64,000 nucleotides of DNA from IMG/VR virus record IMGVR_UViG_3300025663_000002, positions 1 to 64,000 of that record. One strand, 5' to 3'. The stretch comes from a virus. Taxonomy: Duplodnaviria; Caudoviricetes. Shown piece after piece: positions 2,900 through 63,426 of this stretch. The notes under the pieces were generated by a model. That model did not search any database. It was not told the origin of the DNA and saw only the letters and a program-made list of their open reading frames with translations. Numbering within the stretch: the first letter of the stretch is position 1; each line of letters begins with the position of its first letter. Position numbers and translations under genes: made by a program.

Positions 2900-2909
2900 A
2901 AGGGGATTA

Positions 2910-3137
2910 ATGGCACAAGTAAGCAAACAACAAGAATTTCAAATGATCATTGAAGGTTTAGTTTCTGATGGGATATCATACATAGACGTGATTACAGAAT
3001 ACATGGAAACCAACGAACTAGAACCAAAGCAAATAAAGAAACTTATATCACCAACACTACAAGAGAAAATCACAAGGGAAGCTATTAAATTTAGGTTGAT
3101 TGACAAAGAAGAACTTGGAAGCACTCTGCCTCTGTGA
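2910..3137 (+). CDS. 33: Late transcription coactivator gp33
   Basis: 75 aa; SYIDVITEYMETNELEPKQIKKLISPTLQEKITREA matches the gp33 pattern; adjacent to gp59. Confidence 0.85.
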   Translation: MAQVSKQQEFQMIIEGLVSDGISYIDVITEYMETNELEPKQIKKLISPTLQEKITREAIKFRLIDKEELGSTLPL

Positions 3138-9628: not shown

Positions 9629-9641
9629 CTTAGTTATATCC

Positions 9642-9773
9642 TTATGCTAATTGCTGTGCCCTAATACGTTCGTTTTCATCTTCAATATGTGCTTGTAATA
9701 AGTCAACATATATCTTTCGTTCAAACGGAATCATATTGTTTATATCGGACAACGAGTAATTGTGATGTTGCAT
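9642..9773 (-). CDS. 51: gp51-like C-terminal module (43 aa from ATG; open reading extends upstream to the gp26 slippery site)
   Basis: Manual translation MQHHNYSLSDINNMIPFERKIYVDLLQAHIEDENERIRAQQLA; YSL..I..MIP.ER motif. Confidence 0.75.
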   Translation of the reverse strand: MQHHNYSLSDINNMIPFERKIYVDLLQAHIEDENERIRAQQLA

Positions 9774-26600: not shown

Positions 26601-28796
26601 TATGGAGTTGAAGGACATTTCCATTACTTCGACGATGTTATTTTAGATTCTTTCGGTACTAATTATGGCAGACGATCTAACTCATTAAGTCGGGTTGGTG
26701 CAGAAATTCTCGCAAACCAAGAAGAAGGTTCTGTTCATACTTTATATTCTTCAATCGTAGACGACGGAACTCGACGACATTATCATGGTTATGATATTAC
26801 ATATTCTTCTGCACAACGTACATTTGTATTAGAAGAAACTGCTGAGTGGGAAGAGGGTGTACGTGATACTGGTGCGTATATATTAGTTGGAACTCAAACC
26901 CACGAACATCCAACTTCAGTTGACGGACTACTAACGTCTGTTGGTTGGAACGGTGACCCATCATTTGAAGCACCATCGGCTGTCATCGGTCAGGCAAATG
27001 ACTGGGACAATCTTAATGGGTCTTTAATTCCTCATCAACATTACTTTAATGATACTGGGTTAGACCAAGTTGGACCTAATTCTGACAGAACTGCAGTTTA
27101 TTTATCAAACACGCAAACAACCGACTTAATTTCGGGTGCTATTGAGAATGTTACATTATATTCTTCAATTTACCAAAACCATTACCATGAGTACAATGTA
27201 ACGTTCGACTCATTAAATGGTTCTTTAGTTATACAAGAAGTAGAACAGTGGGTATCTGCTGACAATCAACAATACTTTATTAGAACTCCTGCTGATCACA
27301 GGCATCCAGTTTCCGTAGATGGTGTTCCTAGTGGAACTGGATATAATCAGATGATATCTATAAATAGTTTGCCTATATTTGATTCTCCAGGTTTCCCTTA
27401 TCCTGGTGGATCACATCCTCACTTCTTCAACGGCACAGTTGTTGGTCCATTCTCGGACGGCACTATTGAATATTCTGTTGGGTTAAGTGTTGATCAATCG
27501 TATAAGTTGATTGATGGTATAATTAATCAAGTTACACTTTATGACTCTATTTCTGGTGGACATTTTCACTCGTATGTTGTTAAGTGGGACGATTTGAATA
27601 ATATATTCTATTGTACAAGTTCAGTTACATACGTTCGTGGTGGAATTGAAGACGCAACACAAGATACTGGTAAATATTACCTATCGCAAATTCTAGGACC
27701 ATCTGAAGGGTTGCATTGGCACAACTTAACGATTGACTGGAATCCAAATAATGAGGCAGTAGCACAGCAAAGTGGTGGTTCTATTTACCAAACAAACATA
27801 GCAAGTTCATACGAAACGTTAGTCAATCCTCCTTCAGTTGAAGTTAATGTTAATACAACAGCATTATCTCCTGTATCTACAAGTTACCCAGATACACCGA
27901 GTGTTGGTGACAACACAACCATTATAACGTACAGTGATTTGACAACTACGACAACGACGACAACGACTATCACAAACGTAACAGAAACTATTACAACTAA
28001 TATTTCAGACGGAACAAGTTCTTCTACAGTATTACCTCCAGTAGTTTCAACGGATGTAGATGTTGTGCAATCAACTCTGACGATTGAAAATGAACTCAAA
28101 CGTAAGACATTTGTTAATAATATACTACAAGTTAATAATGCACCAACTATATGGATTGGCAATACATTTATTGACGGTGAAGGTTCTCATGATCATTTAC
28201 TATACCAAGGTTGTTCTTTAGATACACAAGGACCGTTCTCGGGTAGAATGTGTGAACCAATTACCTTGGCAACTGCTAACTTATTAATTAATGCGCAAGA
28301 CCCTACTTTTGGAACAATTTTTTATGATTCTCCCAACGGCAACTTGTCGCATTATCATAGTTACTCGTTGAAGTTTAACCCTTTCTTAGGTGACGACGGA
28401 ACGTTCCTTGCTTTACCAATTAGTCAGTTTGATAGATTCCCTGGATCGGGTACGAACGTTCATAAGTTTATGTTAAGTGGTGGTTTCCACACCCATACAT
28501 ATTTCTTAACTGAGGCAGAATATGCTACGTTAGTTGGAGGAGGTTTGGTTCAAACCTCCCAAGCAGACGCTATTCACGCAGAACTATATACGCACACTTT
28601 AGTAATTAGACTTGTAAATTTCCAATATCAAATTGTATCTCAGTCGTCGGACTTTGATAACCACGATACCGTAATATATCAAGGCATGGTTGCTGAGGGT
28701 GGACAATGGATTCAAAATCAACAAGGTTCTGGACTAGGTGACCATATTCATTCTACTACGATAGACGAATCGAATATATGGCCTGTTCCAGCATAG
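20649..28796 (+). CDS. 7: Giant baseplate wedge protein gp7 with inserted Cys/Trp arrays, PQQ-type sugar dehydrogenase domain and His-rich repeats
   Basis: gp7 core (FVTFMQKYFEYLE, KGTKSALDFLF, YYQDFSYVIRS, LVHPVG) in the first ~340 aa; GSDH motifs later. Confidence 0.85.
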   Translation: MSNKQFTESPAKFLSIFVERMVPEYVREDHPMFVTFMQKYFEYLERETDVNGELGEYKQISDLIQNVDIDHTLDQFIPEFEKQYLHNIPHEAIGAEVETTDKSFLTKNIKESYKEKGTKSALDFLFRREFDTEAYVAYPKDFMLKASGSIWYEPQWLEVSEPEEDVRKLYNKKVIGQISGATAFVDIEETAVMPEIEKLLLTQVEGSFVQGEEIWEEVGTSGLTPNKLTVVSDGIIAPATCYINGVAWSTTYGANVPQTKTACESLKETDNTIKTAVWLPNGYWVDSAGFLSSDRKMQDNNYYQDFSYVIRSDVPVQAYRDVLKKLVHPVGLKLFAEYMFETTVPMGTKLPEKYAAYLIAIFSYLDVAVDIYPNGKCSDYQITDEMTCNDSGATWTRGQSYRTTHRKTYEWTRPETFELQEDITIPWNHMRSDGTTREDIVNGVPQGSGQDEVILSGTIINTTLPKGEERYRTKVWKCSEPTGNYSYGSESELLVASTNCFAAGGEWSQHITGSNYSDMTDEWIFVDNQWKPESIYTKKETQIGEEHEGFEKFLDQGFEDYVLEILKKTEVKSEILEPLDWNHPTDHLLLDVTTEPNVIGTRLHSKLYQVFTMNENIKLGLDAFPEKLILAYYQQIKILDTEVQGALDNTLNIRRTFKGIKEYQTTNSVCSDPTITSYTECVDGGTCSDSNYNNDEYSCLNVGSCSSAADGLFTELLCKGSGFIWTPQSPENVWTSSGNTWTHENVDWLGTYNEEFKATDGRMIGCEVWELLVAKGLESILEYNLRIVQVESYAPQQNYRFWEQNRENTIIQSIYGNTNDIIDAVHIEAFDVDGGIRTHMHGEVDGFAPMVDTVLTKGVDLPQMAVGASAFHTHSFDGTELKNLLVHGKSIDASGISYQQTRDLLNREAFEIPDFHGANLVCGGIMTPPLWGDWVDSVQDPRYNGVGECFNSIYENETDCVGFYGDPMFWMSPSCSDQASADEATCHNVGHSWGYFTLAELPPMKGHVSYFVKGEVVDRQRGRTADPLTREQARQLIDGDIASVTLYDNVGALDKEGNPTYDENDITIGGTITNIRGEITSGHYHEYAVTYDADWKTKQDWRGNNLTHGFVYTPVTTFLCFNYKPDLPVDETIMGGMDFTGQPWPQNVFMDVPDSYVGGFLNNPDITLQHNQVWAEDLNPNVDWVEIYSSNFIQDVPGSGTIDDLIGAEQVGVNTDIATIKAYPRMNEDYIALIDQSGFIYLQKVSGECSDNAWGNKQDCLDLAGICSNTTFNNNQILCESSGTCSDITFTDETLCLVDGTCSDGLLLTQSTCESAGTCSDVSYTAENICTSSGETWTPAGNVWSTINSWSLETWTPATNTWTVPDTAPLLFMDLTSLQHVIGLGPFGNYDERGVLGLAFHPDYVNNGKFYVYYMTEQGGGTGSFGYPLSTSVISEFTATFGGNWDVADVTSERILLEIPQPDMNHNGGELEFGPDGYLYIGLGDGGNAGDTSTTTGHGGHGDYGNAQNPTNLLGNILRIDVTEDTVNSMPYTIPADNPFINSIYKEGQAEAQPFRPEIYAYGFRNPWRFSFDTDDRLWCADVGQNKFEEVNIVEKGGNYGWRVMESYHYYEEQQSVIDQMAIDLGYTTTLEYLSDLKKPIHEYSHGTGISVLGGFVYRGTEVPELTGKYIFGDWGKTWEGTSGQLFALEETVAGLAANFNVLPNAVNGATHSHTLTLTTAEVDFLQANPGSPVVTIQTDSVHAEFYVHTFTVTYSSADGLFHIIGQTNPEGHDLLEFDGWSDDVGYNRRSLSFWDPVTEIVTLTTFDESLLTMGEDTQGEIYFSTRVGIGTFRPPGIGPNNTKIFKITDSYSSVDVPNAPAQIPVTQKAHTHGYKVTYNFTEQMFEVVEISDIEMSTWDAFWPIWEINDPASHVHPVITAWSHAVDVEIPLGSSAGWHFDEVTQEWGPYDIGADTAWAPPSVDTGGYVTIDVAPNLAVSMANEYGVEGHFHYFDDVILDSFGTNYGRRSNSLSRVGAEILANQEEGSVHTLYSSIVDDGTRRHYHGYDITYSSAQRTFVLEETAEWEEGVRDTGAYILVGTQTHEHPTSVDGLLTSVGWNGDPSFEAPSAVIGQANDWDNLNGSLIPHQHYFNDTGLDQVGPNSDRTAVYLSNTQTTDLISGAIENVTLYSSIYQNHYHEYNVTFDSLNGSLVIQEVEQWVSADNQQYFIRTPADHRHPVSVDGVPSGTGYNQMISINSLPIFDSPGFPYPGGSHPHFFNGTVVGPFSDGTIEYSVGLSVDQSYKLIDGIINQVTLYDSISGGHFHSYVVKWDDLNNIFYCTSSVTYVRGGIEDATQDTGKYYLSQILGPSEGLHWHNLTIDWNPNNEAVAQQSGGSIYQTNIASSYETLVNPPSVEVNVNTTALSPVSTSYPDTPSVGDNTTIITYSDLTTTTTTTTTITNVTETITTNISDGTSSSTVLPPVVSTDVDVVQSTLTIENELKRKTFVNNILQVNNAPTIWIGNTFIDGEGSHDHLLYQGCSLDTQGPFSGRMCEPITLATANLLINAQDPTFGTIFYDSPNGNLSHYHSYSLKFNPFLGDDGTFLALPISQFDRFPGSGTNVHKFMLSGGFHTHTYFLTEAEYATLVGGGLVQTSQADAIHAELYTHTLVIRLVNFQYQIVSQSSDFDNHDTVIYQGMVAEGGQWIQNQQGSGLGDHIHSTTIDESNIWPVPA
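22656..22892 (+). repeat. Three CS..C modules followed by three W-T closers (protein-level)
   Basis: CSDPTITSYTEC / CSDSNYNNDEYSC / CSSAADGLFTELLC, then FIWTP, NVWTS, NTWTH. Confidence 0.75.
24387..24740 (+). repeat. Five G-x-CS[DN]-x8-9-C modules (51-54 bp period) followed by five Trp closers
   Basis: GECSD, GICSN, GTCSD x3; DNA repeat gg[tc]acttgttcaga; then WTP, WST, WSL, WTP, WTV. Confidence 0.85.
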
Positions 28797-43064: not shown

Positions 43065-43078
43065 TATAAATATAAATA
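43065..43078 (+). promoter_or_regulatory. Overlapping tandem late promoters TATAAATATAAATA
   Basis: Motifs at 43065-43072 and 43071-43078. Confidence 0.75.
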
Positions 43079-43119: not shown

Positions 43120-46100
43120 ATGTCTATTACATTGGATACAATTACCCATGCGGTCAACTCGTTTAACGACATTCCAGACGTTACGTTCAACTCTATTGAC
43201 ATTGGCGAGTTTGCTAACGACGTAGAAATTTATACTAATACCCCTGCGGTAATGATTCCTTCTAAATTGAATGCTATGGCAGGTTCAATGAAGACTTGGT
43301 TGAATACCAATATTGCAGCACCATTAGAAGCACAACAAAATACCTTTAAAACGGAAGTAGTTGTACGTACTAATGAGGCAATGACTGCTGTTGAAACTTA
43401 TATCAATAACGAAGTAAAATCTTTTGTTAATGATATTTTTGTTCCGTGGGCAAACAACTCTGGTGTATTACTTGCTGATAATGCTAATACATTAGAAGGA
43501 AACGTTACTACTACATTAGGTCAATTAACAACAGACTATACTATCCACGTAGCAGCCCAAGACGCTATTATCGCTCAAGCACTTCAAAGTTTTGAAGATA
43601 ACCTTGCTCAATACACTGGTGATTCTGGTGCTGGTTACTCTATTCATCAAACAAATCAGTTAATTGCTGACCAAACGATGACCAAAGATATTTCTTTAGA
43701 TAACTATAAGTTTGACGAAAACGGAAATGTTACATATTTCAGAGAAGGTGATTTTGAAACTCATCATATCGTATATAACGCAGAAGAACAAATTATTTCT
43801 TACGGCGAAACTTTATCTATTTCTGGTGAAGCAAGACCTTTTGTAAATCATCAAATCCTAGGGTATGATGAAAGTGGACTTAAAACTTCGATTGAGCAAG
43901 TTAAATCATACAACTTCTTCATCAACACAGACGCATCTAATATCAAATCTTTTCGTGCTACGGGTAATGAGAAAAACGGTGATGCAGCTTTGGACTTAAC
44001 TATCCTTAATAACACTTCTGTTGCAGACACGGACAACCCCTCAATTTTATTAACAAGAGGCACGCCGGTTATTATGACATTCGAAGGAATTATTGCTGGA
44101 GATTTTGTTTCTATAGAAGACGGTTCTGGTAACGTTTATGATGATGGTGTTAGTGGACAATATGCCATGGATTCTGACACTATTACATTCAAACCATATA
44201 AGTCGTACTGTCATGACGGTGTTTCTGGTGCTACGGGTTGGGGTGTTGTTTCAAACATGGGTGCTTCTGAAATTGATGGTGATAATTCAGGCGCTTTCCA
44301 AGACCCAGACTTATGTGAAAAATACTTCACACCAAATGTTTCTATTTTGGACGACTTTACACGTGAATATGAGTTTGTAACTGCAGGGGAAACTTATGAC
44401 AGTGCACTTTCTGATGGTTTAATTTATAAAGTATTCATCTCCGACGACTCAGGTTTCTCTGATACATATTCATACACAATTGACCACAACAGTAAGTTAG
44501 GTACTGGTGCTATTGTGAACGCAGTATATGACGACGGTTGTTCTGATATCACAATTACAAATGGTGGTAACGGTTTCTCAAACGGAACTATTGCTCGTAT
44601 ATTTGATCAAGATTCAGTTGCCACTCCGGCAGTATGTGCTATCACTACTGGTGATGGTTCTATTGGTTCGGTCAATATCATAAATGGTGGTGCAGGGTAC
44701 AACGGTTTCTGGAGAATTAATTTACCTGATATCGGAGGATTAGGTGCTCATACACACATTATTGAAGTTTCTCAAGCAGAAGTGAATCAAATTAAAGCAG
44801 GTTCACCTATTACAAAAACAACACTAGACGCAGGGCATACTCATGATGTTACAATGTCATGGAACTCATTTGTAGAAGAATTTAATTTTGATGTATATGA
44901 TGTTGTTGCGGGCCATGAACATGGACCGATCTCTTCTTCTAATGAAATTAACCCTGATATTCAATTACAGTTTATCGGTGATGGCACAAACGCCGCTGGT
45001 TATATTGTATTAGACGAGTCAGGAACGGTTGTTGATGTTATTATTACTAATTCTGGTATTGGATACACTAATATAACGGTTCAAACTTTAGGTGGTGCAG
45101 CCACAACGGATGCTACATTAAGTGGAAACTTAGTAAATGGTGCGGTTGTTTCTATTAACGTAAATACTCCAGGAGCAGGTTATACTGACTCTACTGCGGC
45201 AACAATCAATGTAGGAATTACATCAAGTTTATTTAACCCTTCTGAATTTACAGCTAAAGTGGGTGATACAATCCACTTCACTAATAATGATGCTGCAGCT
45301 CATACAGTAGAAAACGTTGAAGGTGCCTTTGCTTCTCCTTCGTTACCACAATCTGCTACTTGGGATTATGTTATTACTAAAGACACAGATATTACTGATA
45401 TTTACAACCTAACGGGTTCTGGTATCGCACAAGACGGTAGAATGTATGTACGTGAAAATACTACATTCATTGATATCGTTTCAAATACTGGTGGTGGTTT
45501 ACGTGCTAAAGGTACTATTAACGCTGCAGGCACATTGACTAACGTTGCTATTATAGAAAAAGGTTTTGGTTATACAAATGCAGATTCGGTAAGAGTTATT
45601 GACGTATCAGGTACTGGTGAAGGTGCTTACGCTACTGCAAATATAGACCGTAAAGTGATTGATATTACTATTGATAATGGTGGTGCTGGTTATGATGCAA
45701 ATACTAGAATTCTTGTAGTTGACCCTTCAGGTAGAGACGTAAATGGAACTAAAGTATTTGGTTCTGGTGCTGTTATAACCCCTACTATTGACGCAAGTGG
45801 TACTATTACTGCTATTACGGTTAATAATCAAGGTTCTGGATACACAGACGTAGACTTCATTGTTCATGATGCTTCTGGGTTGGGTGCTGGTTTAGTATTA
45901 ACTCCAAGTGTAGATTCATATGTAGAAAGTATTACTATGACCGCTCGTGGTGCTGGTTACACAAACCCTATTTGTATTGTTTCTGATTCAGTAGGAACAT
46001 ATGGTAATGGAAATGATGCAGGTAATTCTACTCAAAATAACGTTGCTGGTAACTTATTCACATCTACTGCTATCCTTAACGACGGAATCGGTTCGATTGT

Positions 46101-46593
46101 TGTTGTTGATGGTTGGAAAGATTATGTTGCAGGAACTCAACGTGTTACTATTGTTGATATTGATCCAAACCCTACTGGGTTTGGTGCTACTGCTACTGCT
46201 TCGTTGAATGCGGGTGGTGCGGTTTCTGGTATTACAATCACAAATTCTGGTACTTCATACAAACAACCACAAGTTACAGTTGACGGTGAGGTTCTATATT
46301 TTGGTGCTGTAATTAATGCAGTAAATACCAACATTGCATTATTCGGACCAGAAGGTAATACTAACGCAAGTCCATTCGCAGCTAATGGAGTATCTGATAC
46401 TAACTTTAAGAACGGTGTTATGATTCAGTTTGGTAATGATGGTGGTCACTCAATTAACGACTCATGGACGTTTAAGTTACAGACATGGAAGAAAGGTACA
46501 CCAGGAACACTAACATATAAGACATACCAATATGATGGTAGTTTAATTAACACACAGGGCACAATATCTTTAAGAGATATTTGGGAAGCTTAA
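43120..46593 (+). CDS. Fibre protein with GxGY repeats, His module and degenerate cupredoxin-like domain
   Basis: 1157 aa; helical N-terminus, many ITxxGxGY repeats, FNPSEFTAKVGDTIHFTNNDAAAHTV. Confidence 0.75.
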   Translation: MSITLDTITHAVNSFNDIPDVTFNSIDIGEFANDVEIYTNTPAVMIPSKLNAMAGSMKTWLNTNIAAPLEAQQNTFKTEVVVRTNEAMTAVETYINNEVKSFVNDIFVPWANNSGVLLADNANTLEGNVTTTLGQLTTDYTIHVAAQDAIIAQALQSFEDNLAQYTGDSGAGYSIHQTNQLIADQTMTKDISLDNYKFDENGNVTYFREGDFETHHIVYNAEEQIISYGETLSISGEARPFVNHQILGYDESGLKTSIEQVKSYNFFINTDASNIKSFRATGNEKNGDAALDLTILNNTSVADTDNPSILLTRGTPVIMTFEGIIAGDFVSIEDGSGNVYDDGVSGQYAMDSDTITFKPYKSYCHDGVSGATGWGVVSNMGASEIDGDNSGAFQDPDLCEKYFTPNVSILDDFTREYEFVTAGETYDSALSDGLIYKVFISDDSGFSDTYSYTIDHNSKLGTGAIVNAVYDDGCSDITITNGGNGFSNGTIARIFDQDSVATPAVCAITTGDGSIGSVNIINGGAGYNGFWRINLPDIGGLGAHTHIIEVSQAEVNQIKAGSPITKTTLDAGHTHDVTMSWNSFVEEFNFDVYDVVAGHEHGPISSSNEINPDIQLQFIGDGTNAAGYIVLDESGTVVDVIITNSGIGYTNITVQTLGGAATTDATLSGNLVNGAVVSINVNTPGAGYTDSTAATINVGITSSLFNPSEFTAKVGDTIHFTNNDAAAHTVENVEGAFASPSLPQSATWDYVITKDTDITDIYNLTGSGIAQDGRMYVRENTTFIDIVSNTGGGLRAKGTINAAGTLTNVAIIEKGFGYTNADSVRVIDVSGTGEGAYATANIDRKVIDITIDNGGAGYDANTRILVVDPSGRDVNGTKVFGSGAVITPTIDASGTITAITVNNQGSGYTDVDFIVHDASGLGAGLVLTPSVDSYVESITMTARGAGYTNPICIVSDSVGTYGNGNDAGNSTQNNVAGNLFTSTAILNDGIGSIVVVDGWKDYVAGTQRVTIVDIDPNPTGFGATATASLNAGGAVSGITITNSGTSYKQPQVTVDGEVLYFGAVINAVNTNIALFGPEGNTNASPFAANGVSDTNFKNGVMIQFGNDGGHSINDSWTFKLQTWKKGTPGTLTYKTYQYDGSLINTQGTISLRDIWEA

Positions 46594-46624
46594 TACAAAG
46601 ATATTACAATAGGAGTAAATTCAA

Positions 46625-47878
46625 ATGGGAATGGACATATTAACCCTCGGGAAAATCAAAAAGATTGACGATAAGATCGACGGTGTCAATATTAACGTTG
46701 ACGCTAAAATTGCACAACTAGAAATTGACACAAACACGTCGATCAGTGGTAGTGCATCTGATACAGCAAGCGCTGTTGCAACATTAACTTCTGACATGAA
46801 CACGGCGATTGCCGCAATCAACGTTAATACTGTTACTGGTGATCACGCGGTTAGTGGGAATCAAACTACAGTTGGTACTGTTACAGCAAATACCTTTGTT
46901 GGAGATGGTGCTCAATTAACAGGACTAAACCCATTCCCAGATACTGCTTCATTACAGTCAGACGCATATTTAATGGCCAATCCTGCAGGGACAGTCTTTT
47001 GGGCAGAAACTGATTTTAAATTAAGAATAGTATATACTCAGGGATACATGATGGGTGGTTACCAAGGTAGTTCTCCTTGGAGAAATGTGAATAGAACTGT
47101 ACACGCAACAGATATCACAACAAACTTAGGAGACGTTCTTGCACGATCTGGTGGTTATTGTACTGGTGGATTTTCTGACCTAGATGCGTTCTTATATGGA
47201 TCGGGCAACACTATGGGTGCTTCGGCAAATGTTGAAGGATTCCATATGTTCTCCGAGACAGGGTTCTCTGTAAATAATATGACTGCATCAAGAAATGACT
47301 CTGGCGAATTCCAAAACCAAGAAGGAACTATGGCATATATTTATGGTGCTGGAACTGGTAATGTTGATAGACATAACTTCTCGTCTGGGTCGTTTACTAA
47401 TATATACAGTGGAGATTCGTCAGACCATCAAAATTCAAATCAATGGGGTGACGACCTTCATGGGTTCCGTTCTAAAGGTTCTCAAAAAATGAATTTTTCA
47501 ACAGAAGCTTGGAGTGCTTTTGCTAATGTTGTTGGTGCTCAAACTCACTCTAAAACTCTTCCTTCTAAACACGGTAGAATGTATATCGAAAACAACGGAA
47601 ATAGTACAAGTGGAAGTCAGGTAGTAAAATACAACACTACTACATTCTCGGGTGCTAATACTGGTAACTTTAAAGCAGGTATTGGTGGTGAGACTAACTT
47701 TGAAATCGGACAAGAGCACGGGTATGGTTTAGGAGATTGTGGATCACATGGTTGTCAGTCTAATCACTCATACAAAACATATTATCATTCAGACTCACAT
47801 ACAGTTCTTGGTGCAGCTGGAGAAATTAAAGGACACCCTGGAGCATCTTCGGGTGGTTGCGGAACAAGAGGAGCATAA
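46625..47878 (+). CDS. Virion protein with coiled-coil N-terminus and Kelch-like propeller
   Basis: GYMMGGY, AFLYG, AYIYGAG, GYGLG repeats at roughly 40-50 aa spacing. Confidence 0.55.
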   Translation: MGMDILTLGKIKKIDDKIDGVNINVDAKIAQLEIDTNTSISGSASDTASAVATLTSDMNTAIAAINVNTVTGDHAVSGNQTTVGTVTANTFVGDGAQLTGLNPFPDTASLQSDAYLMANPAGTVFWAETDFKLRIVYTQGYMMGGYQGSSPWRNVNRTVHATDITTNLGDVLARSGGYCTGGFSDLDAFLYGSGNTMGASANVEGFHMFSETGFSVNNMTASRNDSGEFQNQEGTMAYIYGAGTGNVDRHNFSSGSFTNIYSGDSSDHQNSNQWGDDLHGFRSKGSQKMNFSTEAWSAFANVVGAQTHSKTLPSKHGRMYIENNGNSTSGSQVVKYNTTTFSGANTGNFKAGIGGETNFEIGQEHGYGLGDCGSHGCQSNHSYKTYYHSDSHTVLGAAGEIKGHPGASSGGCGTRGA

Positions 47879-47880
47879 TA

Positions 47881-48618
47881 ATGTATATTTTATATAAAGA
47901 ATCAGGCGCAGGATACCCAGCGTCAGTAGTACCTAAGTTTAATGTTAGAGGTAGAATAATCGCCCAGGTGGACGCAAACGACCCTATCAATTTCATCAAA
48001 GGTAATGTTAAAACCTTACCAGACAATATTGTTGAAACAGGCGCAATGTTTGTAGGAAAATGGAAAGATAAATATTACATATTAAGTGACGGACAACATT
48101 CTTCATCAAAGGAAACTAATGATGACGAAAAGGTTGATGTTGAATTGTCAGACGAAATAAAAGCAGCTTCTTTAAGTATCTTAAAAACTGTATTGATTTC
48201 TAATGTTGAAGACGTATTTGATTTTAGGTTTAAAGGATTAAACGCAGACGTTCCTGAACTAGAATATTCAACTTGGTCTGCTCAAGTTAAAGAATCAGAC
48301 GCATATTCTGCAGACGACTCTGTTGCCACTCCAGTTCTTGATGTTTTATCAGAAGCAAGAGGAATTAGTGTTGCAGACTTGGTTGCTAAAATTTCATCTA
48401 ACGTTGCTTCTTATAATATTGAGGTGTCTACTCTACTCGGACAACAGCAAGCAAAGGTTGACGAAATAACGTCCATTGATAATGTAAAAGACCTATTGGA
48501 ATGGGATGAAGTTAATTTTGGTATTGAAATGCCATATAAAATCGCAGTCGAAAAGGGAGTTTCTTTTGAAGAAGGAGTTCTTCGTTCTACTCCAGTCATA
48601 ACCGAAGTAAAGTTTTAA
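47881..48618 (+). CDS. Tail-fibre assembly chaperone-like protein
   Basis: EYSTWSAQVKES...TPVLDVLSEARGISVADLVAKI...LLGQQQ; likely start ATG 47881 after GAGGAG. Confidence 0.6.
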   Translation: MYILYKESGAGYPASVVPKFNVRGRIIAQVDANDPINFIKGNVKTLPDNIVETGAMFVGKWKDKYYILSDGQHSSSKETNDDEKVDVELSDEIKAASLSILKTVLISNVEDVFDFRFKGLNADVPELEYSTWSAQVKESDAYSADDSVATPVLDVLSEARGISVADLVAKISSNVASYNIEVSTLLGQQQAKVDEITSIDNVKDLLEWDEVNFGIEMPYKIAVEKGVSFEEGVLRSTPVITEVKF

Positions 48619-48681
48619 ATAAAACTCGTTAAAAAATCCCATATATATATTTGTAGATAAGTAAATTATTATGAATATATT

Positions 48682-48897
48682 ATGGGATTTTTAACACCTT
48701 TAAGATACATGTCAGCAAGTACCATTGTTGCGGCGATGTTTTTACACAGCCAGCCACACCTTTTTCCATATAACGTATATATTCACATGGTGGGAGCCAT
48801 GTTATGGACTATTGTGGGGTTGTCCAGTAAAGATCGCGCGATACTTTTGAATTTTGCACCACAGATTCCTATTTTAGGAATCGGTATGATATTATAA
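48682..48897 (+). CDS. Small membrane protein
   Basis: 71 aa with three hydrophobic segments; PYNVYIHMVGAMLWTIVG. Confidence 0.6.
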   Translation: MGFLTPLRYMSASTIVAAMFLHSQPHLFPYNVYIHMVGAMLWTIVGLSSKDRAILLNFAPQIPILGIGMIL

Positions 48898-48928
48898 ACC
48901 AAACTAATTATATTATGGAGAACAAACA

Positions 48929-49678
48929 ATGAGCAATACAATCAAACTAAAAGAAAGTAGCCTATACTCAACATTAGACGAATTTGGTCGGGAATTATTA
49001 GACTATTCGATGAATAGAACACAAGGGTATTCAAAATTTCAAATGGAAAACTTTGTAATTAACCCCGCAATTACCAATTACAGAAAAATGGATCAAGTTA
49101 TGCTTGAGATCGAAAGCAGAACTCAAGTAGAACGTACTATTGTAATGGAAATTAAAACAAACAAGATTAAAATCGATATGTTAAAAGAAGATATTGAATC
49201 GTTTGAAGGAAGGAAAGGCAATAAACAACTACTTGAGATAGAATTAGAACGGTTGGAATATGATTTAGTGGTTAATACCAAAAGGCATAAGCAAGCATTC
49301 ATGGAATTAGAAACGTTAATAAGTATCGTTTCTGATAACTTTGAAACGACAGAAGAAGTAGTTTCGATGCTTGAAGACGACATTGAAGAAAAGGAAGAAA
49401 AGTATTGGGTCACTCGTATGGCTAAACAAGCTGCAATGGATATGGTATCATCGGGGAGAATTGGTGTTGGTAATATGGACGCTATTGCTGGTATGCCCGA
49501 AGATAAACAAGTAGAAACTCTTGCTGTCGCATTACAATACAATCAAAGACTTAATGACGGAATGTCTCAAATCAACTCAAATGTATTGGAAGGTCTTCAT
49601 ACAAACGAAGGATCGTTGCCAAAGTTTGACGTTCCTTCTATCACTGATAAATTATTGGTGAAATTGGATGATGAATAG
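48929..49678 (+). CDS. Conserved coiled-coil hypothetical protein
   Basis: 249 aa; YWVTRMAKQAAMDMVSSGRIGVGNMDAI; GGAG SD. Confidence 0.7.
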   Translation: MSNTIKLKESSLYSTLDEFGRELLDYSMNRTQGYSKFQMENFVINPAITNYRKMDQVMLEIESRTQVERTIVMEIKTNKIKIDMLKEDIESFEGRKGNKQLLEIELERLEYDLVVNTKRHKQAFMELETLISIVSDNFETTEEVVSMLEDDIEEKEEKYWVTRMAKQAAMDMVSSGRIGVGNMDAIAGMPEDKQVETLAVALQYNQRLNDGMSQINSNVLEGLHTNEGSLPKFDVPSITDKLLVKLDDE

Positions 49679-51386
49679 ACTTTTTAGTTTACCAATTAAT
49701 TCAAAATTAAACCTACAACAAACAGACCAATTCATATCAGAAGTAAGTGAAGTAAAAGGATACGTCCACGATTTATACTTCACTTGTAGGATGCCTCCAT
49801 TTACTCAAGATGCGATGGGTGATATTTTTGAAGAAAAGGACTTTGTTCAAGTTGCGTTTAATGCTATGACTATTGGCAAGACTTTGGGTATTCCTGTATC
49901 TGCAACGTTTAACAACATACACATTTCCCCCAAACAAGAAAACCTTAATACTTTTATAGAATACTTCAAACCTTTATATGATATGGGTGTAACTACGGTA
50001 ACTATACCCCACAGTCTTTGGATGGCAGGTGGACAACTCAAAAAGGCATTCCCTAAATTAACAGTAAAGAATACAATAATCCGTGATGTACACACTCCAA
50101 GCGAGGTTGTGTATCTAGGAAAGGTTGGATTTGATTTGGTCAATTTGGATAGAGATTTGATGAGGGATAAAGACACCTTATTGAAAATTAAAGAAGCACG
50201 AGATTTTGTAAGGAAGGTGTATAATCCCGACTTTAAAGTTTCTTTGTTGGTGAACGAAGGGTGTGTTGGTGAATGCCCAGTAATGGACGAACATTTTACA
50301 TTCAATTCAACAAGGGTTGCAGACGATGTTCCATATTTCTTCGATACAATAAGTAAAAACAGTTGCCCTAAATGGGAAACCGAAGACCCTTCGCACAGTT
50401 TAAAGATAGCAAACCTATCACCTTGGAAAGAGGATTGGGACGAATATATAAATGAATTAGGTATTGACGTATTTAAGTTGCACGGAAGGGAAGACCTAAG
50501 AAGACAATTTGAAAGTATAGAATTAATAAAACGATTCAAAGACAACGAGACTTTTGTATTCAAAGACTTCGAGAGTTATATAGGTGAGTCTAATTTAGAA
50601 AACAAACCAATTAAGGTTTGGAGAGATAAGATTAGAAATTGCAAATTCGATTGCTGGAAGTGTCATTACTGTGACGACGTGTCCAACGCCAAACGCGAAG
50701 ACGAATTTTACACAACACACCCATACGCAGAACACGTTAAATCTTCGTTAATAGAAGCATTTGAATTTGATGGAGTGATGAACGATATTGTAGGTTTGAC
50801 TTCAGAAAAGGTTAAATTCTTATTAAATAAAATAGGTTCTATGCCTGACGCAAGGTATTTAGAAATAGGTTCTTTCCAAGGAGCAACATTATGTTCTACT
50901 TTACAAGACAACTCGATGTCTGCAATAGCAGTAGATGATTGGAGCAGTGAGAAAATAGAACCGTTGAGAGATGTTGATGGTTGGGAAAGTGAAGAAGAAT
51001 TACCAAAAGACGTATTCATTAAGAATGTAGAAAGGTATGCAAAGAACAGTAATGTTACTGTTATGAATGGGAGGATGGAAGAGTTAAATGTTGAAGAATT
51101 TCCATTCAAACCTAATATCATTTTTTATGATGGACCTCATAGTTATACAGACCAATATCATATCTTTGAAAAACTAGACGCAATGATTGACGATGTTTTC
51201 ATTTGGATCACAGACGACTACAATTGGAGACAAGTGGAAGATGCTGTGTCTAGAGCATACACGGACATGAAATATGAAGTAATATATGATAAGAAAATAT
51301 TCACTAAAGGGGAAGACCCAGAAGATTTCTGGAATGGATTGAGGGTTTCTGTACTACGTAAATCAATTAAGTTAAATAATACTTGA
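49668..51386 (+). CDS. U32-peptidase-family (Fe-S) domain fused to class I SAM methyltransferase
   Basis: NEGCVGEC...C, FKLHGRE, CKFDCWKCHYC; then YLEIGSFQG, AVDDWS, FYDGPH. Confidence 0.72.
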   Translation: MMNRLFSLPINSKLNLQQTDQFISEVSEVKGYVHDLYFTCRMPPFTQDAMGDIFEEKDFVQVAFNAMTIGKTLGIPVSATFNNIHISPKQENLNTFIEYFKPLYDMGVTTVTIPHSLWMAGGQLKKAFPKLTVKNTIIRDVHTPSEVVYLGKVGFDLVNLDRDLMRDKDTLLKIKEARDFVRKVYNPDFKVSLLVNEGCVGECPVMDEHFTFNSTRVADDVPYFFDTISKNSCPKWETEDPSHSLKIANLSPWKEDWDEYINELGIDVFKLHGREDLRRQFESIELIKRFKDNETFVFKDFESYIGESNLENKPIKVWRDKIRNCKFDCWKCHYCDDVSNAKREDEFYTTHPYAEHVKSSLIEAFEFDGVMNDIVGLTSEKVKFLLNKIGSMPDARYLEIGSFQGATLCSTLQDNSMSAIAVDDWSSEKIEPLRDVDGWESEEELPKDVFIKNVERYAKNSNVTVMNGRMEELNVEEFPFKPNIIFYDGPHSYTDQYHIFEKLDAMIDDVFIWITDDYNWRQVEDAVSRAYTDMKYEVIYDKKIFTKGEDPEDFWNGLRVSVLRKSIKLNNT

Positions 51387-51411
51387 CTTTTGCATCACGA
51401 TATGGTATAAT
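51383..51411 (+). promoter_or_regulatory. Sigma70-type promoter for the halogenase
   Basis: TTGACT-N17-TATAAT, same style as the promoter at 3959. Confidence 0.8.
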
Positions 51412-51446
51412 ATAATATGACATTACAATAATAATACAATAATAAG

Positions 51447-52967
51447 GTGAATAAAATAATCAACTCAATAACAATAGTAGGAGGAGGTTCTACTGGTTGG
51501 ATAACAGCCGCCCATCTATCTAAAAACTTACCATCTAACGTAGATATAACGTTAATCGCTTCTAGTAAAATTGGCACGATTGGAGTGGGGGAAGGAACTC
51601 AACCATTTACTACTGCATTTTTACAAGAATGTGGATTACAGCCATGGGATTGGATGAAAGACTCCGATGCTACCTTTAAGTTGGGTGTAGAGTTTGTAGG
51701 TTGGTCAGACAACCCAATTTTTATCGACAATGATACTCAAGAAATGGCAGTGCTTGGTCCAGGAATAATGATGCATGATTATGTATTAGGAAAGAATATC
51801 TCCAAAAAAGACTTTGCAAATTGGACACCTTCTTATAGGTTGGCAAAAGAGAACAAGTCCCCTAAATGTGGTGATCCAAGGTTAGATTTCACCCAAGGGT
51901 ACACATCATTACCGTGGGACGCGTATCATTTTAACGCAGATCGGTTAGGGGAGGTATTAAAGAAATCTTGTATAGACAAGGTTAAGTACATAGACGACCT
52001 GGTAACCAACATAGAAACTGACGATAATGGTATTGCCTTCTTAGAGACAGAACATAATGGGTTATTAATATCGGACCTTTATATCGACGCAACTGGGTTT
52101 AAGTCTATGTTATTAGAGGGTGCACTAGGAGAAGAATTCGACTCCTTAGAGGACACTTTATTATGTAATCGTGCGATTGCAATACCTACACAATACAAAG
52201 ACAAAGAACAAGAGATGCACCCATATACTAAGTCTATTGCAATGAAATCTGGTTGGAGGTGGGCTATACCAACGTTCTCTCGGATAGGAAACGGTTACGT
52301 ATATTCTGATAAATATTGCACCCCAGAAGAAGCGGAGCAAGAATTGAGAGAATCAATTGGTGATTTTGATACTCCTGCAAATCATATTAAAATGAAAACA
52401 GGAACACATAAGAATATAGCAATCAAAAACGTATATGCTACTGGACTTGCGGCTGCCTTTGCAGAACCACTAGAAGCCACGGGTATTACGTTTTCAACTA
52501 AGGGTGTCCAAAACCTAACGTCAGCTTTGTTAAATAACAATATGCAATATAATGAAAAGGTGGCCAAATGGTTATCGGATGAGTATCATATGCAGGTAAA
52601 TGAAATTGTAGATTTCATATTCTTACACTACCACCTTGCACCTAAGAACGACACACCGTTTTGGAAAGCAGTACACGAAATAGATATTCCAACAACAACA
52701 CAATCAATCTTAGATAAATTTGTAAATTCACCACCTCACCATTTAACAGAAAAACCACTGTTTACTATGTTTCATGTTGGTCAATGGTTTGAACTGATAC
52801 ATGGATTTGGTGCATATGATAATGAGCCGTTAGGAAAGGAAGTTCAATTTGACATCAATATAGAAAATTATGGTGATATTATGTGGGAAACATATACTTC
52901 TAGAACAGACAAAGAAATTGAATTATTTCCGAATCATTATAAATATTTACGAGACTTTTATCAATAG
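51447..52967 (+). CDS. prnA: Flavin-dependent tryptophan-halogenase-family protein (PrnA-like)
   Basis: IVGGGSTG, IGVGEGT, DATFKLG (catalytic Lys position), WRWAIP, FAEPLEATG. Confidence 0.92.
   Translation: MNKIINSITIVGGGSTGWITAAHLSKNLPSNVDITLIASSKIGTIGVGEGTQPFTTAFLQECGLQPWDWMKDSDATFKLGVEFVGWSDNPIFIDNDTQEMAVLGPGIMMHDYVLGKNISKKDFANWTPSYRLAKENKSPKCGDPRLDFTQGYTSLPWDAYHFNADRLGEVLKKSCIDKVKYIDDLVTNIETDDNGIAFLETEHNGLLISDLYIDATGFKSMLLEGALGEEFDSLEDTLLCNRAIAIPTQYKDKEQEMHPYTKSIAMKSGWRWAIPTFSRIGNGYVYSDKYCTPEEAEQELRESIGDFDTPANHIKMKTGTHKNIAIKNVYATGLAAAFAEPLEATGITFSTKGVQNLTSALLNNNMQYNEKVAKWLSDEYHMQVNEIVDFIFLHYHLAPKNDTPFWKAVHEIDIPTTTQSILDKFVNSPPHHLTEKPLFTMFHVGQWFELIHGFGAYDNEPLGKEVQFDINIENYGDIMWETYTSRTDKEIELFPNHYKYLRDFYQ
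52938..52945 (+). promoter_or_regulatory. Late promoter TATAAATA upstream of the transporter leader
   Basis: Exact motif in the last codons of the halogenase. Confidence 0.55.
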
Positions 52968-53119: not shown

Positions 53120-54178
53120 ATGGAAATTTTATTTGCATTTGTTTTAAAGAAACAAGTATATTTGTTATATTTGTTGGGAGTTATGATATCAGCAGGTATT
53201 ATTAAAGAGAGAGAATACTTTAATGACCTATTCAATATTATTGTAGGTAAGATTAAATCAAAGAGATTGATTGTAACATTGACATCTCTTGTGACTGGTG
53301 TCTTACCTATCCCTGGAAGGGTAACAGTATCAGCAGGAGTGTTAAGTACATTAGCGCCTGATGATGATACTCATGAGCATAGAAAGTCAAGATCAAAGTT
53401 TGGTATTATAGATTATTTAGCGACCCATCACTATTACTTGTGGAGTCCGTTAGAGAAAACTATCATTGTTCCTATGGCAGCCCTTGGTTTAAGTTACTCA
53501 GAGATGTTATCATACACTGGAGGATTGTTAGCAATAACTGCGTTCTATATTGGGTGGTATATATTTGGTAAGATGTCGGAAGATGACATTACATTAAATG
53601 TTAAAACTCAACCAATTAATTGGAATCGTTTAATGTTTGGGGCAATGCCTTTATTTGTGGCAATCGGTGCATTAGTTGCTGGTGGTACTCATTGGATGAC
53701 CTTTGGTATTCTAACTGTGTATTATATTATGTATTCGGGTATCTTTAGTTTATCTAAATTAAATTCCTTTGTAAATTGGAATTTAATGGGTGTGCTTGCT
53801 TTAGTTATTATTGCATCCAATATCGTAGGTTCTAATTATGCCGAAATTAAGTCATTCTTAGAAGCATCAAGTGTTCTTGATATGAATACTTTAATTGGAT
53901 TTTTGAGTATTTCTGCTATTGCATACGGTTCTTCGTTTTTATTGGGATCGTCTGGTAAATATGCTGGTATTGTTGCGTTACTTGCTATGATATACGGTGT
54001 TGAATATTTAACGTGGTTCATTGCGTTAGAGTTCTCAGCATACTTAATTAGTCCAACACATAAGTGTACTCATATTGGTCGAATGTATTTTGGCACTAGT
54101 ATGAAGAAATATTATGCTGTTGTTAGTTTATGGACGGCAATTATGATTGGTTATGCGGCTCTGGTAACATTACCATAA
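53120..54178 (+). CDS. Polytopic membrane protein, DUF401/IT-superfamily transporter-like
   Basis: About 10 hydrophobic segments; GVLPIPG, HHYYLWSPLE, YLISPTHKC...YF. Confidence 0.65.
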   Translation: MEILFAFVLKKQVYLLYLLGVMISAGIIKEREYFNDLFNIIVGKIKSKRLIVTLTSLVTGVLPIPGRVTVSAGVLSTLAPDDDTHEHRKSRSKFGIIDYLATHHYYLWSPLEKTIIVPMAALGLSYSEMLSYTGGLLAITAFYIGWYIFGKMSEDDITLNVKTQPINWNRLMFGAMPLFVAIGALVAGGTHWMTFGILTVYYIMYSGIFSLSKLNSFVNWNLMGVLALVIIASNIVGSNYAEIKSFLEASSVLDMNTLIGFLSISAIAYGSSFLLGSSGKYAGIVALLAMIYGVEYLTWFIALEFSAYLISPTHKCTHIGRMYFGTSMKKYYAVVSLWTAIMIGYAALVTLP

Positions 54179-61926: not shown

Positions 61927-63426
61927 ATGGAATTATTCGGTTATAAAGTTGAAAAACAAATAGGTTCTGCGACGATTGAAAAGGGGTCAAACTCTTTCGT
62001 CCCGCCGGACTTAAACGATGGTTCCACTGTTATCAACGGTGGAGGAATAAACGCCTTCGCCACCAATTTTGACGTATCTTTCAAAAACCAGAAAGATTTG
62101 ATTGGGCAATACAGAGAAACTTCACAAAATCCCGAGGCAGAACTTGCTATCGACGATGTTGTTAATGAAGCAATTGTATTGGACCCATATAAGGACGCGG
62201 TATTGATTCATCTGGATAAACTAGATGCTTCAGATAATATCAAGAAAGTTATTACAGAAGAATTTGATGTAATTACTAGAAAACTAGAATTTAATAATTC
62301 TGGACCTGATATTTTTAAGCGTTGGTACGTTGATGGTGCTATTCACTATCACATAATTTTTGACAATGATAATGTCAAGAAAGGTATTAAGGAGTTGAGA
62401 TATATCGACTCTATGGATATCAAGAAAGTAAAAGAAGTAACAAAAGATAAAGATAAAAATGGCATAGAAGTAGTTAAGAAAGTAGACGAATATTGGGTTT
62501 ACAATACAGAAACTATGACTGGCATACAATCTTTAAGAGTTGCAGATGAGTCGATCGCCACTTCGGATAGTGGTTTATTTGATTCAGGAAAAGAAGTTAC
62601 ATTGTCTTATTTACATAAAGCAATGAAACCTATTAATCAACTTCGTATGCTAGAAGATGCGATGGTGATTTACAGAATTACAAGAGCACCAGAAAGACGT
62701 GTGTTCTATATTGATGTTGGTAATCTTCCTAAAACGAAGGCTGAGCAATATCTTAGAAACATCATGAACAAGTTTAAAAACAAAATGGTTTATGATGCTT
62801 CGACTGGTAAAGTCAAAGACGGTAAGAATTCAATGTCTATGATGGAAGATTTTTGGTTACCAAGAAAAGAAGGTGGGCGTGGTACTGAAGTTACTACATT
62901 GCCTGGTGGTCAAAACTTAGGTGATATGGACGACGTGATGTATTTTCAAAAGAAAGTATATCAAGCACTTCATGTTCCACCATCTAGAATGGATCAAGAC
63001 CAAACATGGGGATTTGGACGTTCTGGTGAAATTAGCAGAGACGAATTGAAGTTTACTAAGTTTGTTTCTAAGTTAAGAAAACGTTTTTCAGATTTATTCT
63101 TTACCTTACTTCGCACTCAATTGATTGCGAAGGGTATTATAAGTAAGAGTGAATGGAACGTTTATAGAGAACAAATTGAGTTCGTATTTGCGGATGATGG
63201 TTACTTTAGTGAAATAAAGAAACTTGAAATGATGAACCAAAGAATTGAAATGTTAGATACTATTACTAACGGTGAAATGATTGGTCGTTACTACTCTATT
63301 GAATGGGTACGTAAGAACATCCTTATGCAAACGGACGAAGAAATTGCCGATATGGATAAGTTGATGGCAAAAGAAAAAGGAGACACACCTACAGATGATG
63401 AAGGTATGTCTACCGATACATATTAA
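61927..63426 (+). CDS. 20: Portal protein gp20
   Basis: YRITRAPERRVFYIDVGNLPKTKAEQYL, EDFWLPRKEGGRGTEVTTLPGG. Confidence 0.98.
   Translation: MELFGYKVEKQIGSATIEKGSNSFVPPDLNDGSTVINGGGINAFATNFDVSFKNQKDLIGQYRETSQNPEAELAIDDVVNEAIVLDPYKDAVLIHLDKLDASDNIKKVITEEFDVITRKLEFNNSGPDIFKRWYVDGAIHYHIIFDNDNVKKGIKELRYIDSMDIKKVKEVTKDKDKNGIEVVKKVDEYWVYNTETMTGIQSLRVADESIATSDSGLFDSGKEVTLSYLHKAMKPINQLRMLEDAMVIYRITRAPERRVFYIDVGNLPKTKAEQYLRNIMNKFKNKMVYDASTGKVKDGKNSMSMMEDFWLPRKEGGRGTEVTTLPGGQNLGDMDDVMYFQKKVYQALHVPPSRMDQDQTWGFGRSGEISRDELKFTKFVSKLRKRFSDLFFTLLRTQLIAKGIISKSEWNVYREQIEFVFADDGYFSEIKKLEMMNQRIEMLDTITNGEMIGRYYSIEWVRKNILMQTDEEIADMDKLMAKEKGDTPTDDEGMSTDTY

Follow-up and report, generated by a model that had tools for sequence, protein, structure and literature searches.

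We analysed a stretch of 64,000 nucleotides (hereafter the window), positions 1 to 64,000 of the IMG/VR virus record IMGVR_UViG_3300025663_000002, and in it a gene at 49668-51386 whose predicted product joins a U32-like iron-sulphur (Fe-S) domain to an O-methyltransferase-type domain. A model-made note written from the letters alone (the original prediction) had read this gene as such a fusion, possibly able to hydroxylate a substrate without oxygen and then to methylate it. The open reading frame (ORF) and all the motifs named there were borne out: the product is 572 aa long, and a script placed EGCVGEC at residues 197-203, a further cysteine at 233, CKFDCWKCHYC at 325-335, LEIGSFQG at 398-405 and DGPH at 488-491. 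The gene and its parts are as follows.

49668..51386, + strand: gene for a predicted U32-like Fe-S domain fused to an O-methyltransferase-type domain, 572 aa, ATG start; T4-like gene cluster 354 (GC354), phrog_1458
49668..50717, + strand: N-domain (about residues 1-350), predicted triosephosphate isomerase (TIM) barrel plus C-terminal helical cysteine segment; from the AlphaFold2 (AF2) model, structure match and hhalign
50256..50366, + strand: E197-G-C199-x3-C203 ... H209 ... C233, probable counterpart of the U32 [4Fe-4S] site; from the bridging alignment
50640..50672, + strand: C325-x3-C329-x2-C332-x2-C335, invariant four-cysteine motif not in canonical U32 proteins; from the alignment
50760..51368, + strand: C-domain (about residues 365-567), predicted class I S-adenosylmethionine (SAM)-dependent methyltransferase with a COMT/TylF-like O-methyltransferase fold; from Methyltransf_24 and structure matches

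A widespread fusion gene with a single origin

The 572-aa protein matches phrog_1458 over its full length (E 1e-162), and GC354 is annotated as hypothetical everywhere in the cyanophage records, while some sources automatically name its homologues 'predicted O-methyltransferase YrrM'. By word-indexed search the protein has over 1,600 clusters of homologues, and the U32-like gene is present in 126 sequenced phage records of a collection of 50,697. In 43 full-length homologues (43-82% identity) the cysteines C199, C203, C233, C325, C329, C332 and C335 are invariant, and so are E399/G401/G405 and D488/G489/H491; at the sequence level, the motifs are conserved far above chance. All methyltransferase-fused N-domains formed one clade in our tree (support 99/96), on which the fusion arose once and was kept in a large clade. 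Such a single origin followed by retention fits coupled chemistry. The idea that the enzyme might suit a low-oxygen host found no support, as the isolated carriers infect oxygenic Synechococcus and Prochlorococcus.

Neither the full-length protein nor its family profile matched any solved chain when compared with the PDB sequences. Foldseek placed PRMT5, which also combines a TIM barrel with a methyltransferase, on top for the full model; we rejected this match as an architectural coincidence only (TM ~0.2, root-mean-square deviation (rmsd) 17-20). The N-terminal extensions of the differently fused relatives P0134, P0209 and P0255 turned out not to be fused helper proteins. In Prochlorococcus phage P-SSM3 (L012, NC_021559.1) a homologue of GC354 at ~5000-6650 matches residues 5-436 only and has no annotated coding sequence; its frame stops within the methyltransferase domain, which could reflect either a disrupted gene or a sequencing error.

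The N-domain as a divergent member of the U32 superfamily

Given that the U32 model of Pfam does not pick up the 572-aa protein, we made the U32 assignment indirectly, through fold, profile and bridging relatives. An AF2 model of the N-domain built on 43 diverse relatives reached a predicted local distance difference test score (pLDDT) of 92.4 and a predicted template modelling score (pTM) of 0.90. In an exhaustive structural comparison (VIA-align) this model was closest to the U32 protein Mk0906 (5d88; Z 17.1, rmsd 3.2, 227/247 residues), with the next-best TIM barrels at Z <= 12.9 and thus more than 4 Z units lower. The same structure was also the top Foldseek match (E 5e-7, TM 0.67). At the profile level, hhalign of alignment A2 against the E. 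coli proteins UbiU/UbiV/TrhP/RlhA gave a probability of 89.7% and an E value of 1.8e-6 over 112-148 columns. Fold and profile comparison therefore both upheld the U32 part of the original prediction.

The gap to the canonical proteins is spanned by intermediate sequences. Searching 1.84 billion representatives with the N-domain (phmmer) yielded 327 relatives, of which many are 330-450 aa long and stand alone. Among the distant ones, P0224, P0260, P0262 and P0268 (E 1e-11 to 1e-17) are themselves members of Pfam family PF01136 (Peptidase_U32) and form one clade. PF01136 was matched by 5 of 43 distant N-domain relatives, at best with E 5.6e-10, and the Pfam-positive intermediates share all seven cysteines. 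A hidden Markov model (HMM) of the E. coli U32 proteins matched the bridging members at ~1e-9 to 1e-12. P0268, used as a seed for further U32 bridges, retrieved itself only, and neither Pfam nor NCBIfam nor the PDB sequences yielded a match to the N-domain. The curated cut-off of PF01136 is 22.4 bits; for scale, E. coli UbiV scores only 38.4 bits. As modelled, the N-domain is a divergent U32 superfamily member with a TIM barrel, and the U32-like branch to which its sequence assigns it is large, unnamed and very divergent, with an altered cysteine arrangement.

Seven invariant cysteines and the mouth of the barrel

Across 43 distant N-domain relatives with 22-42% identity, the seven cysteines are the only invariant columns. 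The conservation that the original prediction required of them is thus found in both this set and the full-length homologues, and it strongly suggests a metal or Fe-S site, possibly with two centres. Further residues are near-invariant, namely N82, H115, K134/N135, D161/R162, N196/E197, H209 and K270/H272/R274, and these lie at the C-terminal ends of the barrel strands, which is the usual location of the active site in TIM-barrel enzymes.

Canonical U32 proteins bind a [4Fe-4S] cluster through the four-cysteine motif CX6CX15CX3/4C, which in UbiU takes the form CX6CX16CX38C, with C169, C176 and C193 among the four proven ligands (PMC6747719). Alignment through the bridging relatives pairs C199/C203/C233 with exactly these three UbiU cysteines, and also LDRDL with LPREL and FKLHGR with VKIEGR. 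The fourth canonical ligand is absent from the phage protein, and CX6C is shortened to CX3C. The distal CX3CX2CX2C tail is a candidate source of the fourth ligand and/or of a second metal site. We grade the correspondence between C199/C203/C233 and the U32 cluster ligands as probable rather than settled, because hhalign gives another register.

Radical SAM enzymes are marked by a CX3CX2C motif in the loop after beta1 of a partial barrel. The spacing of C325-x3-C329-x2-C332 fits this pattern, but the motif follows a complete barrel and lies in a C-terminal helical segment, and PF04055 gave no match, so that we rejected a radical-SAM reading.

The same residues bear on an explanation in which the N-domain is no hydroxylase and would instead help to process or fold a fibre protein, be it as a scaffold stabilised by metal (zinc or structural Fe-S), as an assembly factor or as a genuine peptidase, with the methyltransferase working independently. 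The catalytic-face residues are mostly unlike those of canonical U32 proteins, the partner proteins described below are chaperone-like, and CX3C and CX2C pairs are also typical of zinc sites. U32 was, moreover, first defined by collagenase reports and phage fibres often carry collagen-like repeats (PMC1079782), and a collagen repeat lies near the homologue of the Ralstonia phage RP31. On the other hand, three of the cysteines fall on proven Fe-S ligands in the alignment, the barrel mouth has an enzyme-like lining of invariant polar residues, relatives are found among radical-SAM maturases, as tailoring enzymes are, and U32 peptidase activity has been doubted in the recent literature (PMC6747719, PMC10990095). 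Altogether, we consider a non-hydroxylating N-domain very unlikely.

The C-domain as a probable O-methyltransferase

For the C-domain, the claim of a SAM methyltransferase was supported by a class I fold, by a match to Methyltransf_24 that lies just above the cut-off (29.3 against 26.3 bits) and by an invariant motif I (E399-G401-G405). Searched alone against PDB sequences, the domain had no match. By structural comparison its fold resembles many O-methyltransferases at Z 14.7-16.3, including catechol-type enzymes (TomG, LiOMT, SafC, Rv0187, SynOMT and COMT), the sugar-type enzymes MycF, SpnH and MeT1 (Z 15.0-15.6) and the tRNA-directed TrmR (Z 15.4 and 14.9). D423 ends beta2, D488 of the D488-G-x-H491 motif ends beta4 and D516-D517-x-N519 follows beta5; all of these are invariant. 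D488 and D516/D517/N519 are, by their strand positions, candidates for an Asp/Asp/Asn metal triad. Judged by these residues, the C-domain looks catalytically competent.

The TrmR matches bear on a reading in which the fusion would be a single-chain equivalent of TrhP plus TrmR, making 5-methoxyuridine or hydroxy/methoxy-cytidine in tRNA or rRNA and tuning translation during infection. The characterised RNA-directed U32 proteins TrhP and RlhA do hydroxylate pyrimidine C5 (PMC6599085, PMC5727448), and the automatic naming of some homologues as YrrM points in the same direction. TrmR is, however, tied with dozens of catechol and sugar O-methyltransferases, and Pfam detected no TrhP-type C-terminal domain, Methyltransf_3 or RNA-binding domain. 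In the loci examined, no tRNA or translation genes adjoin the gene or its stand-alone relatives, with the exception of a single bridging relative, whose archaeal-looking contig bears some ribosome-biogenesis-type genes (RIO1, KH/PNO1-like). Being transcribed late, together with fibre genes, would also be odd timing for tRNA remodelling, and the fixed partners are fibre-linked. All in all, RNA modification strikes us as highly improbable.

A portable cassette around the fusion gene

The fusion gene is preceded by three genes that recur with it and is followed in the window by two further genes of possible relevance.

46625..47878, + strand: GC351 ('sericin-like'), Gly/Ser/Asn/Tyr-rich; its C-terminal ~294-aa domain recurs elsewhere
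47857..48618, + strand: GC352-like helper, 253 aa; co-occurs with the U32-like gene almost as well as GC353
48682-48897, + strand: hydrophobic 71-aa ORF between the GC352 and GC353 helper genes; DUF6552, E 4.7e-7
48929..49678, + strand: acidic and helical GC353-like helper of 249 aa; its last 11 nt, stop included, overlap the start of the fusion gene
51447-52967, + strand: flavin-dependent halogenase, Trp_halogenase PF04820, E 1.9e-98, GTG start; directly 3' of the U32-like fusion gene
53120..54178, + strand: DUF401/CitMHS-like polytopic membrane protein, 352 aa, at least 6 hydrophobic segments; 45% identity to a protein of a Leptospirales metagenome-assembled genome (MAG)

Co-occurrence was counted in the 50,697-record collection. 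There, the U32-like gene is carried by 77 Synechococcus, 38 'Cyanophage', 8 Prochlorococcus and 3 Ralstonia records, and the distribution of GC353 is identical but for two weak extras. GC352 resembles the HI1402_helical / Caudo_TAP tail-fibre-assembly group in a protein-atlas comparison, which we treat as a lead only. The GC351 domain is homologous to the C-terminal ~290 residues of a Leptospirales 1511-aa DUF2341/Laminin_G_3 protein and occurs in three paralogues of the marine T4-like phage L020 as well. GC351 is a candidate client of the cassette. The hydrophobic DUF6552 ORF was not seen in the GC352/GC353 gap of the cyanophage loci inspected.

BLAST and HMM searches also located the helper genes beside stand-alone U32-like genes, in phage L020, in the low-GC phage contig L019 and in the Leptospirales MAG. 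In the 6.4-Mb chromosome of this MAG, four cassette genes follow the 1,511-aa DUF2341/Laminin_G_3 protein, and a scan of bacterial genomes with P0139 retrieved the Leptospirales MAG only. The Ralstonia jumbo phages RP31 and RP12 carry the U32-like gene with GC353 as the sole helper gene. Judged by homology, there is a portable cassette composed of a GC351-like fibre-tip domain, GC352, GC353, the U32-like gene and sometimes a DUF401-like permease, and it is found in cyanomyophages, other T4-like phages, Ralstonia jumbo phages and one Leptospirales chromosome. In phage L020, two U32-like paralogues of different clades (2357-3703 and 8583-9734; 448 aa and 383 aa), both with the CX3CX2CX2C tail, flank the three GC351-like paralogues, an arrangement that recalls the two subunits UbiU and UbiV.

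In RP31 and in the Leptospirales MAG, translation of the DUF401-like gene is coupled to that of the stand-alone U32-like gene; in the window, the DUF401-like gene stands within a structural operon of the phage. It is present in 12 phage records only, all of them with the U32-like gene; with 12 of 126 carriers, we rejected it as an obligatory partner. The halogenase was rejected as a fixed partner of GC354 too, as the two genes are not adjacent in S-CAM4, Syn19, P-HM2 and P-SSM4. Viral flavin-dependent halogenases (VirX1/prnA-like) are known from cyanophages.

These two genes would fit with small-molecule or lipid tailoring, that is, hydroxylation and O-methylation of a quinone, a phenolic or another metabolite, which the DUF401-like permease might transport and the halogenase might modify further. 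The closest known reaction pair is indeed a phenol-to-catechol step of the UbiU/V type followed by a cation-dependent O-methyltransferase (PMC6747719, PMC10990095), and the C-domain fold matches catechol O-methyltransferases. The permease is coupled to stand-alone homologues and present in the window too, the halogenase lies directly downstream, and one relative of the U32-like gene adjoins a DAHP_synth_1 gene. Yet the permease is confined to the few carriers given above, the halogenase is not a conserved neighbour, and the partners that never vary are helical proteins without enzymatic character, together with a fibre-tip domain. Genes for isoprenoids, for quinones or for an SCP2 (UbiT-like) protein are absent from the surroundings. 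We regard a small-molecule substrate as unlikely.

Contexts of the stand-alone relatives

Two independent clusters that resemble those for ribosomally synthesised and post-translationally modified peptides (RiPPs) hold relatives of the U32-like gene, together with PqqD, radical-SAM/SPASM enzymes, small Tyr-rich peptides, proteases and ABC exporters. Small ORFs with Tyr/Cys/acidic-rich C-termini adjoin the stand-alone U32-like genes at L017 (10072-10215, 47 aa) and L025 (10515-10709, 64 aa); standing in radical-SAM/ABC-exporter clusters, they are candidate RiPP precursors. Another relative follows Gly-rich fibre genes in a 140-kb phage contig.

One further relative belongs to a phage cluster with four radical-SAM genes and a set of sugar-modifying genes, namely a glycosyltransferase, epimerases, a PIG-L deacetylase, UDP-glucose dehydrogenase and a split transketolase. 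This context, together with the sugar-type O-methyltransferases that score equal to the catechol-type ones, would fit with glycan tailoring, in which a TylF/MycF/MeT1-like sugar O-methyltransferase and redox chemistry of the Fe-S barrel act on a sugar of a glycosylated fibre or of the host envelope polysaccharide. We also take the D488-G-x-H and D516-D517-Y motifs to recall the TylF family. Nevertheless, neither the cassette nor the window contains a glycosyltransferase or sugar-nucleotide gene, and no known U32 substrate is a sugar, so that glycan tailoring appears distinctly unlikely.

A probable late transcription unit in a marine T4-like phage

The window covers the structural-gene region of a marine T4-like myovirus, with the order gp59, gp32, baseplate gp5 to gp8, giant fibre proteins, gp13, gp14, gp15, terminase, sheath and portal. 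The source IMG/VR record is 78 kb long and has an estimated completeness of 43%. The following features define its setting.

20649-28796, + strand: baseplate-wedge-like protein, 2,715 aa, with a glucose/sorbosone-dehydrogenase (GSDH) beta-propeller domain; PF07995, E 7e-32
43065..43078, + strand: two overlapping T4-type late-promoter motifs (TATAAATA), from a motif search; they stand before 43120
61927-63426, + strand: portal protein gp20, ~50% identity to the Methylophilales (OM43) phage Melnitz and ~49% to cyanophages

Since the next TATAAATA motif on the + strand after 43065..43078 lies only at 52938, the genes from 43120 to 52967 probably form a single late transcription unit, and a fibre-like gene, GC351 to GC354 and the halogenase would thus be on one late transcript. 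Across the whole window the motif was found 19 times against 8.5 expected, mostly shortly 5' of structural genes.

We do not call the phage a cyanophage because its portal protein is equally distant from the OM43 phage and from cyanophages. The cyanophage hallmark psbA was not found in the phage record, which is 43% complete. On sequence grounds, the source is a deep-branching marine T4-like virus, not demonstrably a cyanophage.

A proposed fibre-tailoring enzyme

Tentatively, we favour a reading in which an Fe-S, U32-type oxidation or hydroxylation independent of O2 is followed by O-methylation through the tethered domain, on a GC351-type fibre protein or a group attached to it; we hold it as plausible, if short of probable. 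The two-domain tailoring enzyme would be made late, alongside the tail-fibre genes, and the late-promoter layout fits such co-expression. C199, C203 and C233 would hold a [4Fe-4S] cluster at the canonical U32 site, and the C-terminal CX3CX2CX2C would contribute the fourth ligand that is lacking there and perhaps form a second cluster or a zinc site. The barrel would carry out a two-electron oxidation or hydroxylation of an sp2 carbon in the O2-independent manner of U32 proteins, and the tethered methyltransferase would then O-methylate the new hydroxyl (OH -> OCH3), two steps that UbiU/V with UbiG, or TrhP with TrmR, divide between separate proteins. The likeliest substrate would be the GC351-type fibre protein, either at a residue such as an aromatic side chain or at a group attached to it, with GC353 and GC352 acting as adaptor or chaperone.

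We favour a fibre-protein target because the gene is tied to fibre-tip and fibre-chaperone-like genes, and a tRNA, rRNA or quinone target seems less likely. In this respect the original prediction stood only in part. Its architecture of a U32 domain fused to a methyltransferase is supported by the fold, the cysteines, the SAM motifs and the single origin of the fusion, whereas the targets it had named, tRNA/rRNA or a quinone, are disfavoured by a fibre-linked gene context and by relatives in radical-SAM/RiPP-like clusters.

Several observations weigh against this fibre-tailoring proposal. With regard to the barrel, PF01136 does not match the 572-aa protein at E <= 1, nor the six-frame translation of the phage record at the same threshold. 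The canonical CX6CX15CX3/4C motif is not kept, the pattern being CX3CX29C plus the distal CX3CX2CX2C, and the cysteine register depends on the method, the hhalign path differing from the bridging alignment. The conserved barrel residues are mostly unlike those of canonical U32 proteins, except for G107, P129, R162 and K270/G273/R274, so the chemistry may differ too. With regard to the methyltransferase, catechol-, sugar-, RNA- and carboxyl-directed enzymes are tied at Z ~15-16, and the fold gives no substrate class. The link to the fibre genes is guilt by association, as phage fibre regions also gather unrelated accessory genes, and in S-RIM14 the helper genes lie ~6 kb from the enzyme gene. 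A protein substrate, furthermore, leaves the DUF401-like permease partner unexplained. Metal binding, hydroxylation and methylation are all predictions only.

A more specific version of the fibre-protein reading, which we consider unlikely, is that the cassette, encoded by phages and occasionally by bacteria, serves as a protein-maturation system. It would hydroxylate a side chain of the fibre tip without O2, for example converting Tyr to a catechol like that of 3,4-dihydroxyphenylalanine (DOPA), which the O-methyltransferase would then cap, and the stand-alone relatives would do the same on RiPP precursors. If true, this would be the first case of a U32 enzyme with a protein substrate, and the receptor-binding fibre of a phage would bear a chemical modification that is new.

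To our knowledge, no enzymes other than the U32 proteins are believed to use an organic oxygen donor for hydroxylation, and we know of only three U32 substrates, namely ubiquinone precursors, tRNA U34 and 23S rRNA C2501. If the phage enzyme is active, U32 chemistry would reach into viruses and probably a new class of substrates, and the enzyme might chemically tailor structures that decide the host range of abundant ocean phages. The activity ascribed to the family, an O2-independent hydroxylation that depends on prephenate, has not yet been demonstrated in vitro for any U32 protein, including UbiU/V, TrhP and RlhA (PMC10990095). The field thus lacks an in vitro U32 assay, and an active fusion would provide a one-polypeptide handle for one, read out as +16/+30 Da. 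Even if inactive or directed at RNA, the gene would still be a useful, widespread marker with a defined cassette.

Comparison with known systems

Literature searches on the fusion, on U32 proteins in RiPP clusters, on DUF401 and on fibre modification returned nothing relevant, and we found no paper on the GC354 protein or its cassette. The protein can, however, be compared with several characterised systems. With the U32 proteins (UbiU/UbiV, TrhP = YegQ, RlhA = YdcP, and Mk0906) it shares the TIM barrel, profile homology, three cysteine positions and motifs like LPREL and KIEGR. It differs from them in being Pfam-negative, in having CX3C for CX6C, in the loss of the fourth ligand, in the added CX3CX2CX2C and in lacking the U32 C-terminal domain, as well as in being viral, methyltransferase-fused and linked to fibre genes. 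By sequence, the phage protein therefore sits within the U32 superfamily and yet fails two of its defining tests, the HMM match and the cysteine motif.

For UbiU/UbiV plus UbiG, which serve O2-independent ubiquinone biosynthesis, the proposed order is hydroxylation of an aromatic ring by an Fe-S U32 protein that draws on an organic oxygen donor, after which a SAM O-methyltransferase caps the hydroxyl (PMC6747719, PMC10990095). The reaction order that we propose is the same, and both systems have a non-enzymatic accessory partner, UbiT there and GC353 here. However, UbiU/UbiV and UbiG are separate proteins, with a U32 heterodimer and an SCP2 lipid carrier, whereas the phage has one U32-like domain fused to the methyltransferase, other partners, and no lipid or quinone genes. 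TrhP and TrmR/YrrM of Bacillus subtilis convert tRNA U34 to 5-hydroxyuridine (ho5U) and then to 5-methoxyuridine (mo5U), again with a U32 step followed by a COMT-fold O-methyltransferase. Unlike these, the phage gene has no RNA context or RNA domains, its C-domain is no closer to TrmR than to other O-methyltransferases, and its partners are fibre-linked.

The C-domain shares with the cation-dependent class I O-methyltransferases (COMT, CCoAOMT, TomG, SafC and SynOMT; TylF/MycF/SpnH) the fold, motif I and an acidic residue after beta2, and it has a candidate Asp/Asp/Asn triad after beta4 and beta5. It differs in having no sequence match to solved chains, in matching Methyltransf_24 only, and weakly, and in being tethered to an Fe-S barrel. 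The radical-SAM/RiPP-like clusters, in turn, contain the same seven-cysteine U32-like family, and a position after fibre genes recurs, whereas the cassette in the window has no radical-SAM gene and has the fixed partners GC351, GC352 and GC353. New in this analysis are the probable mapping of cysteines to cluster ligands, the finding that the fusion arose once, the fact that GC353 and the U32-like gene share one distribution across phage records, the relationship of the GC351 domain to a giant bacterial surface protein, the permease partner and the RiPP-like contexts of the stand-alone relatives.

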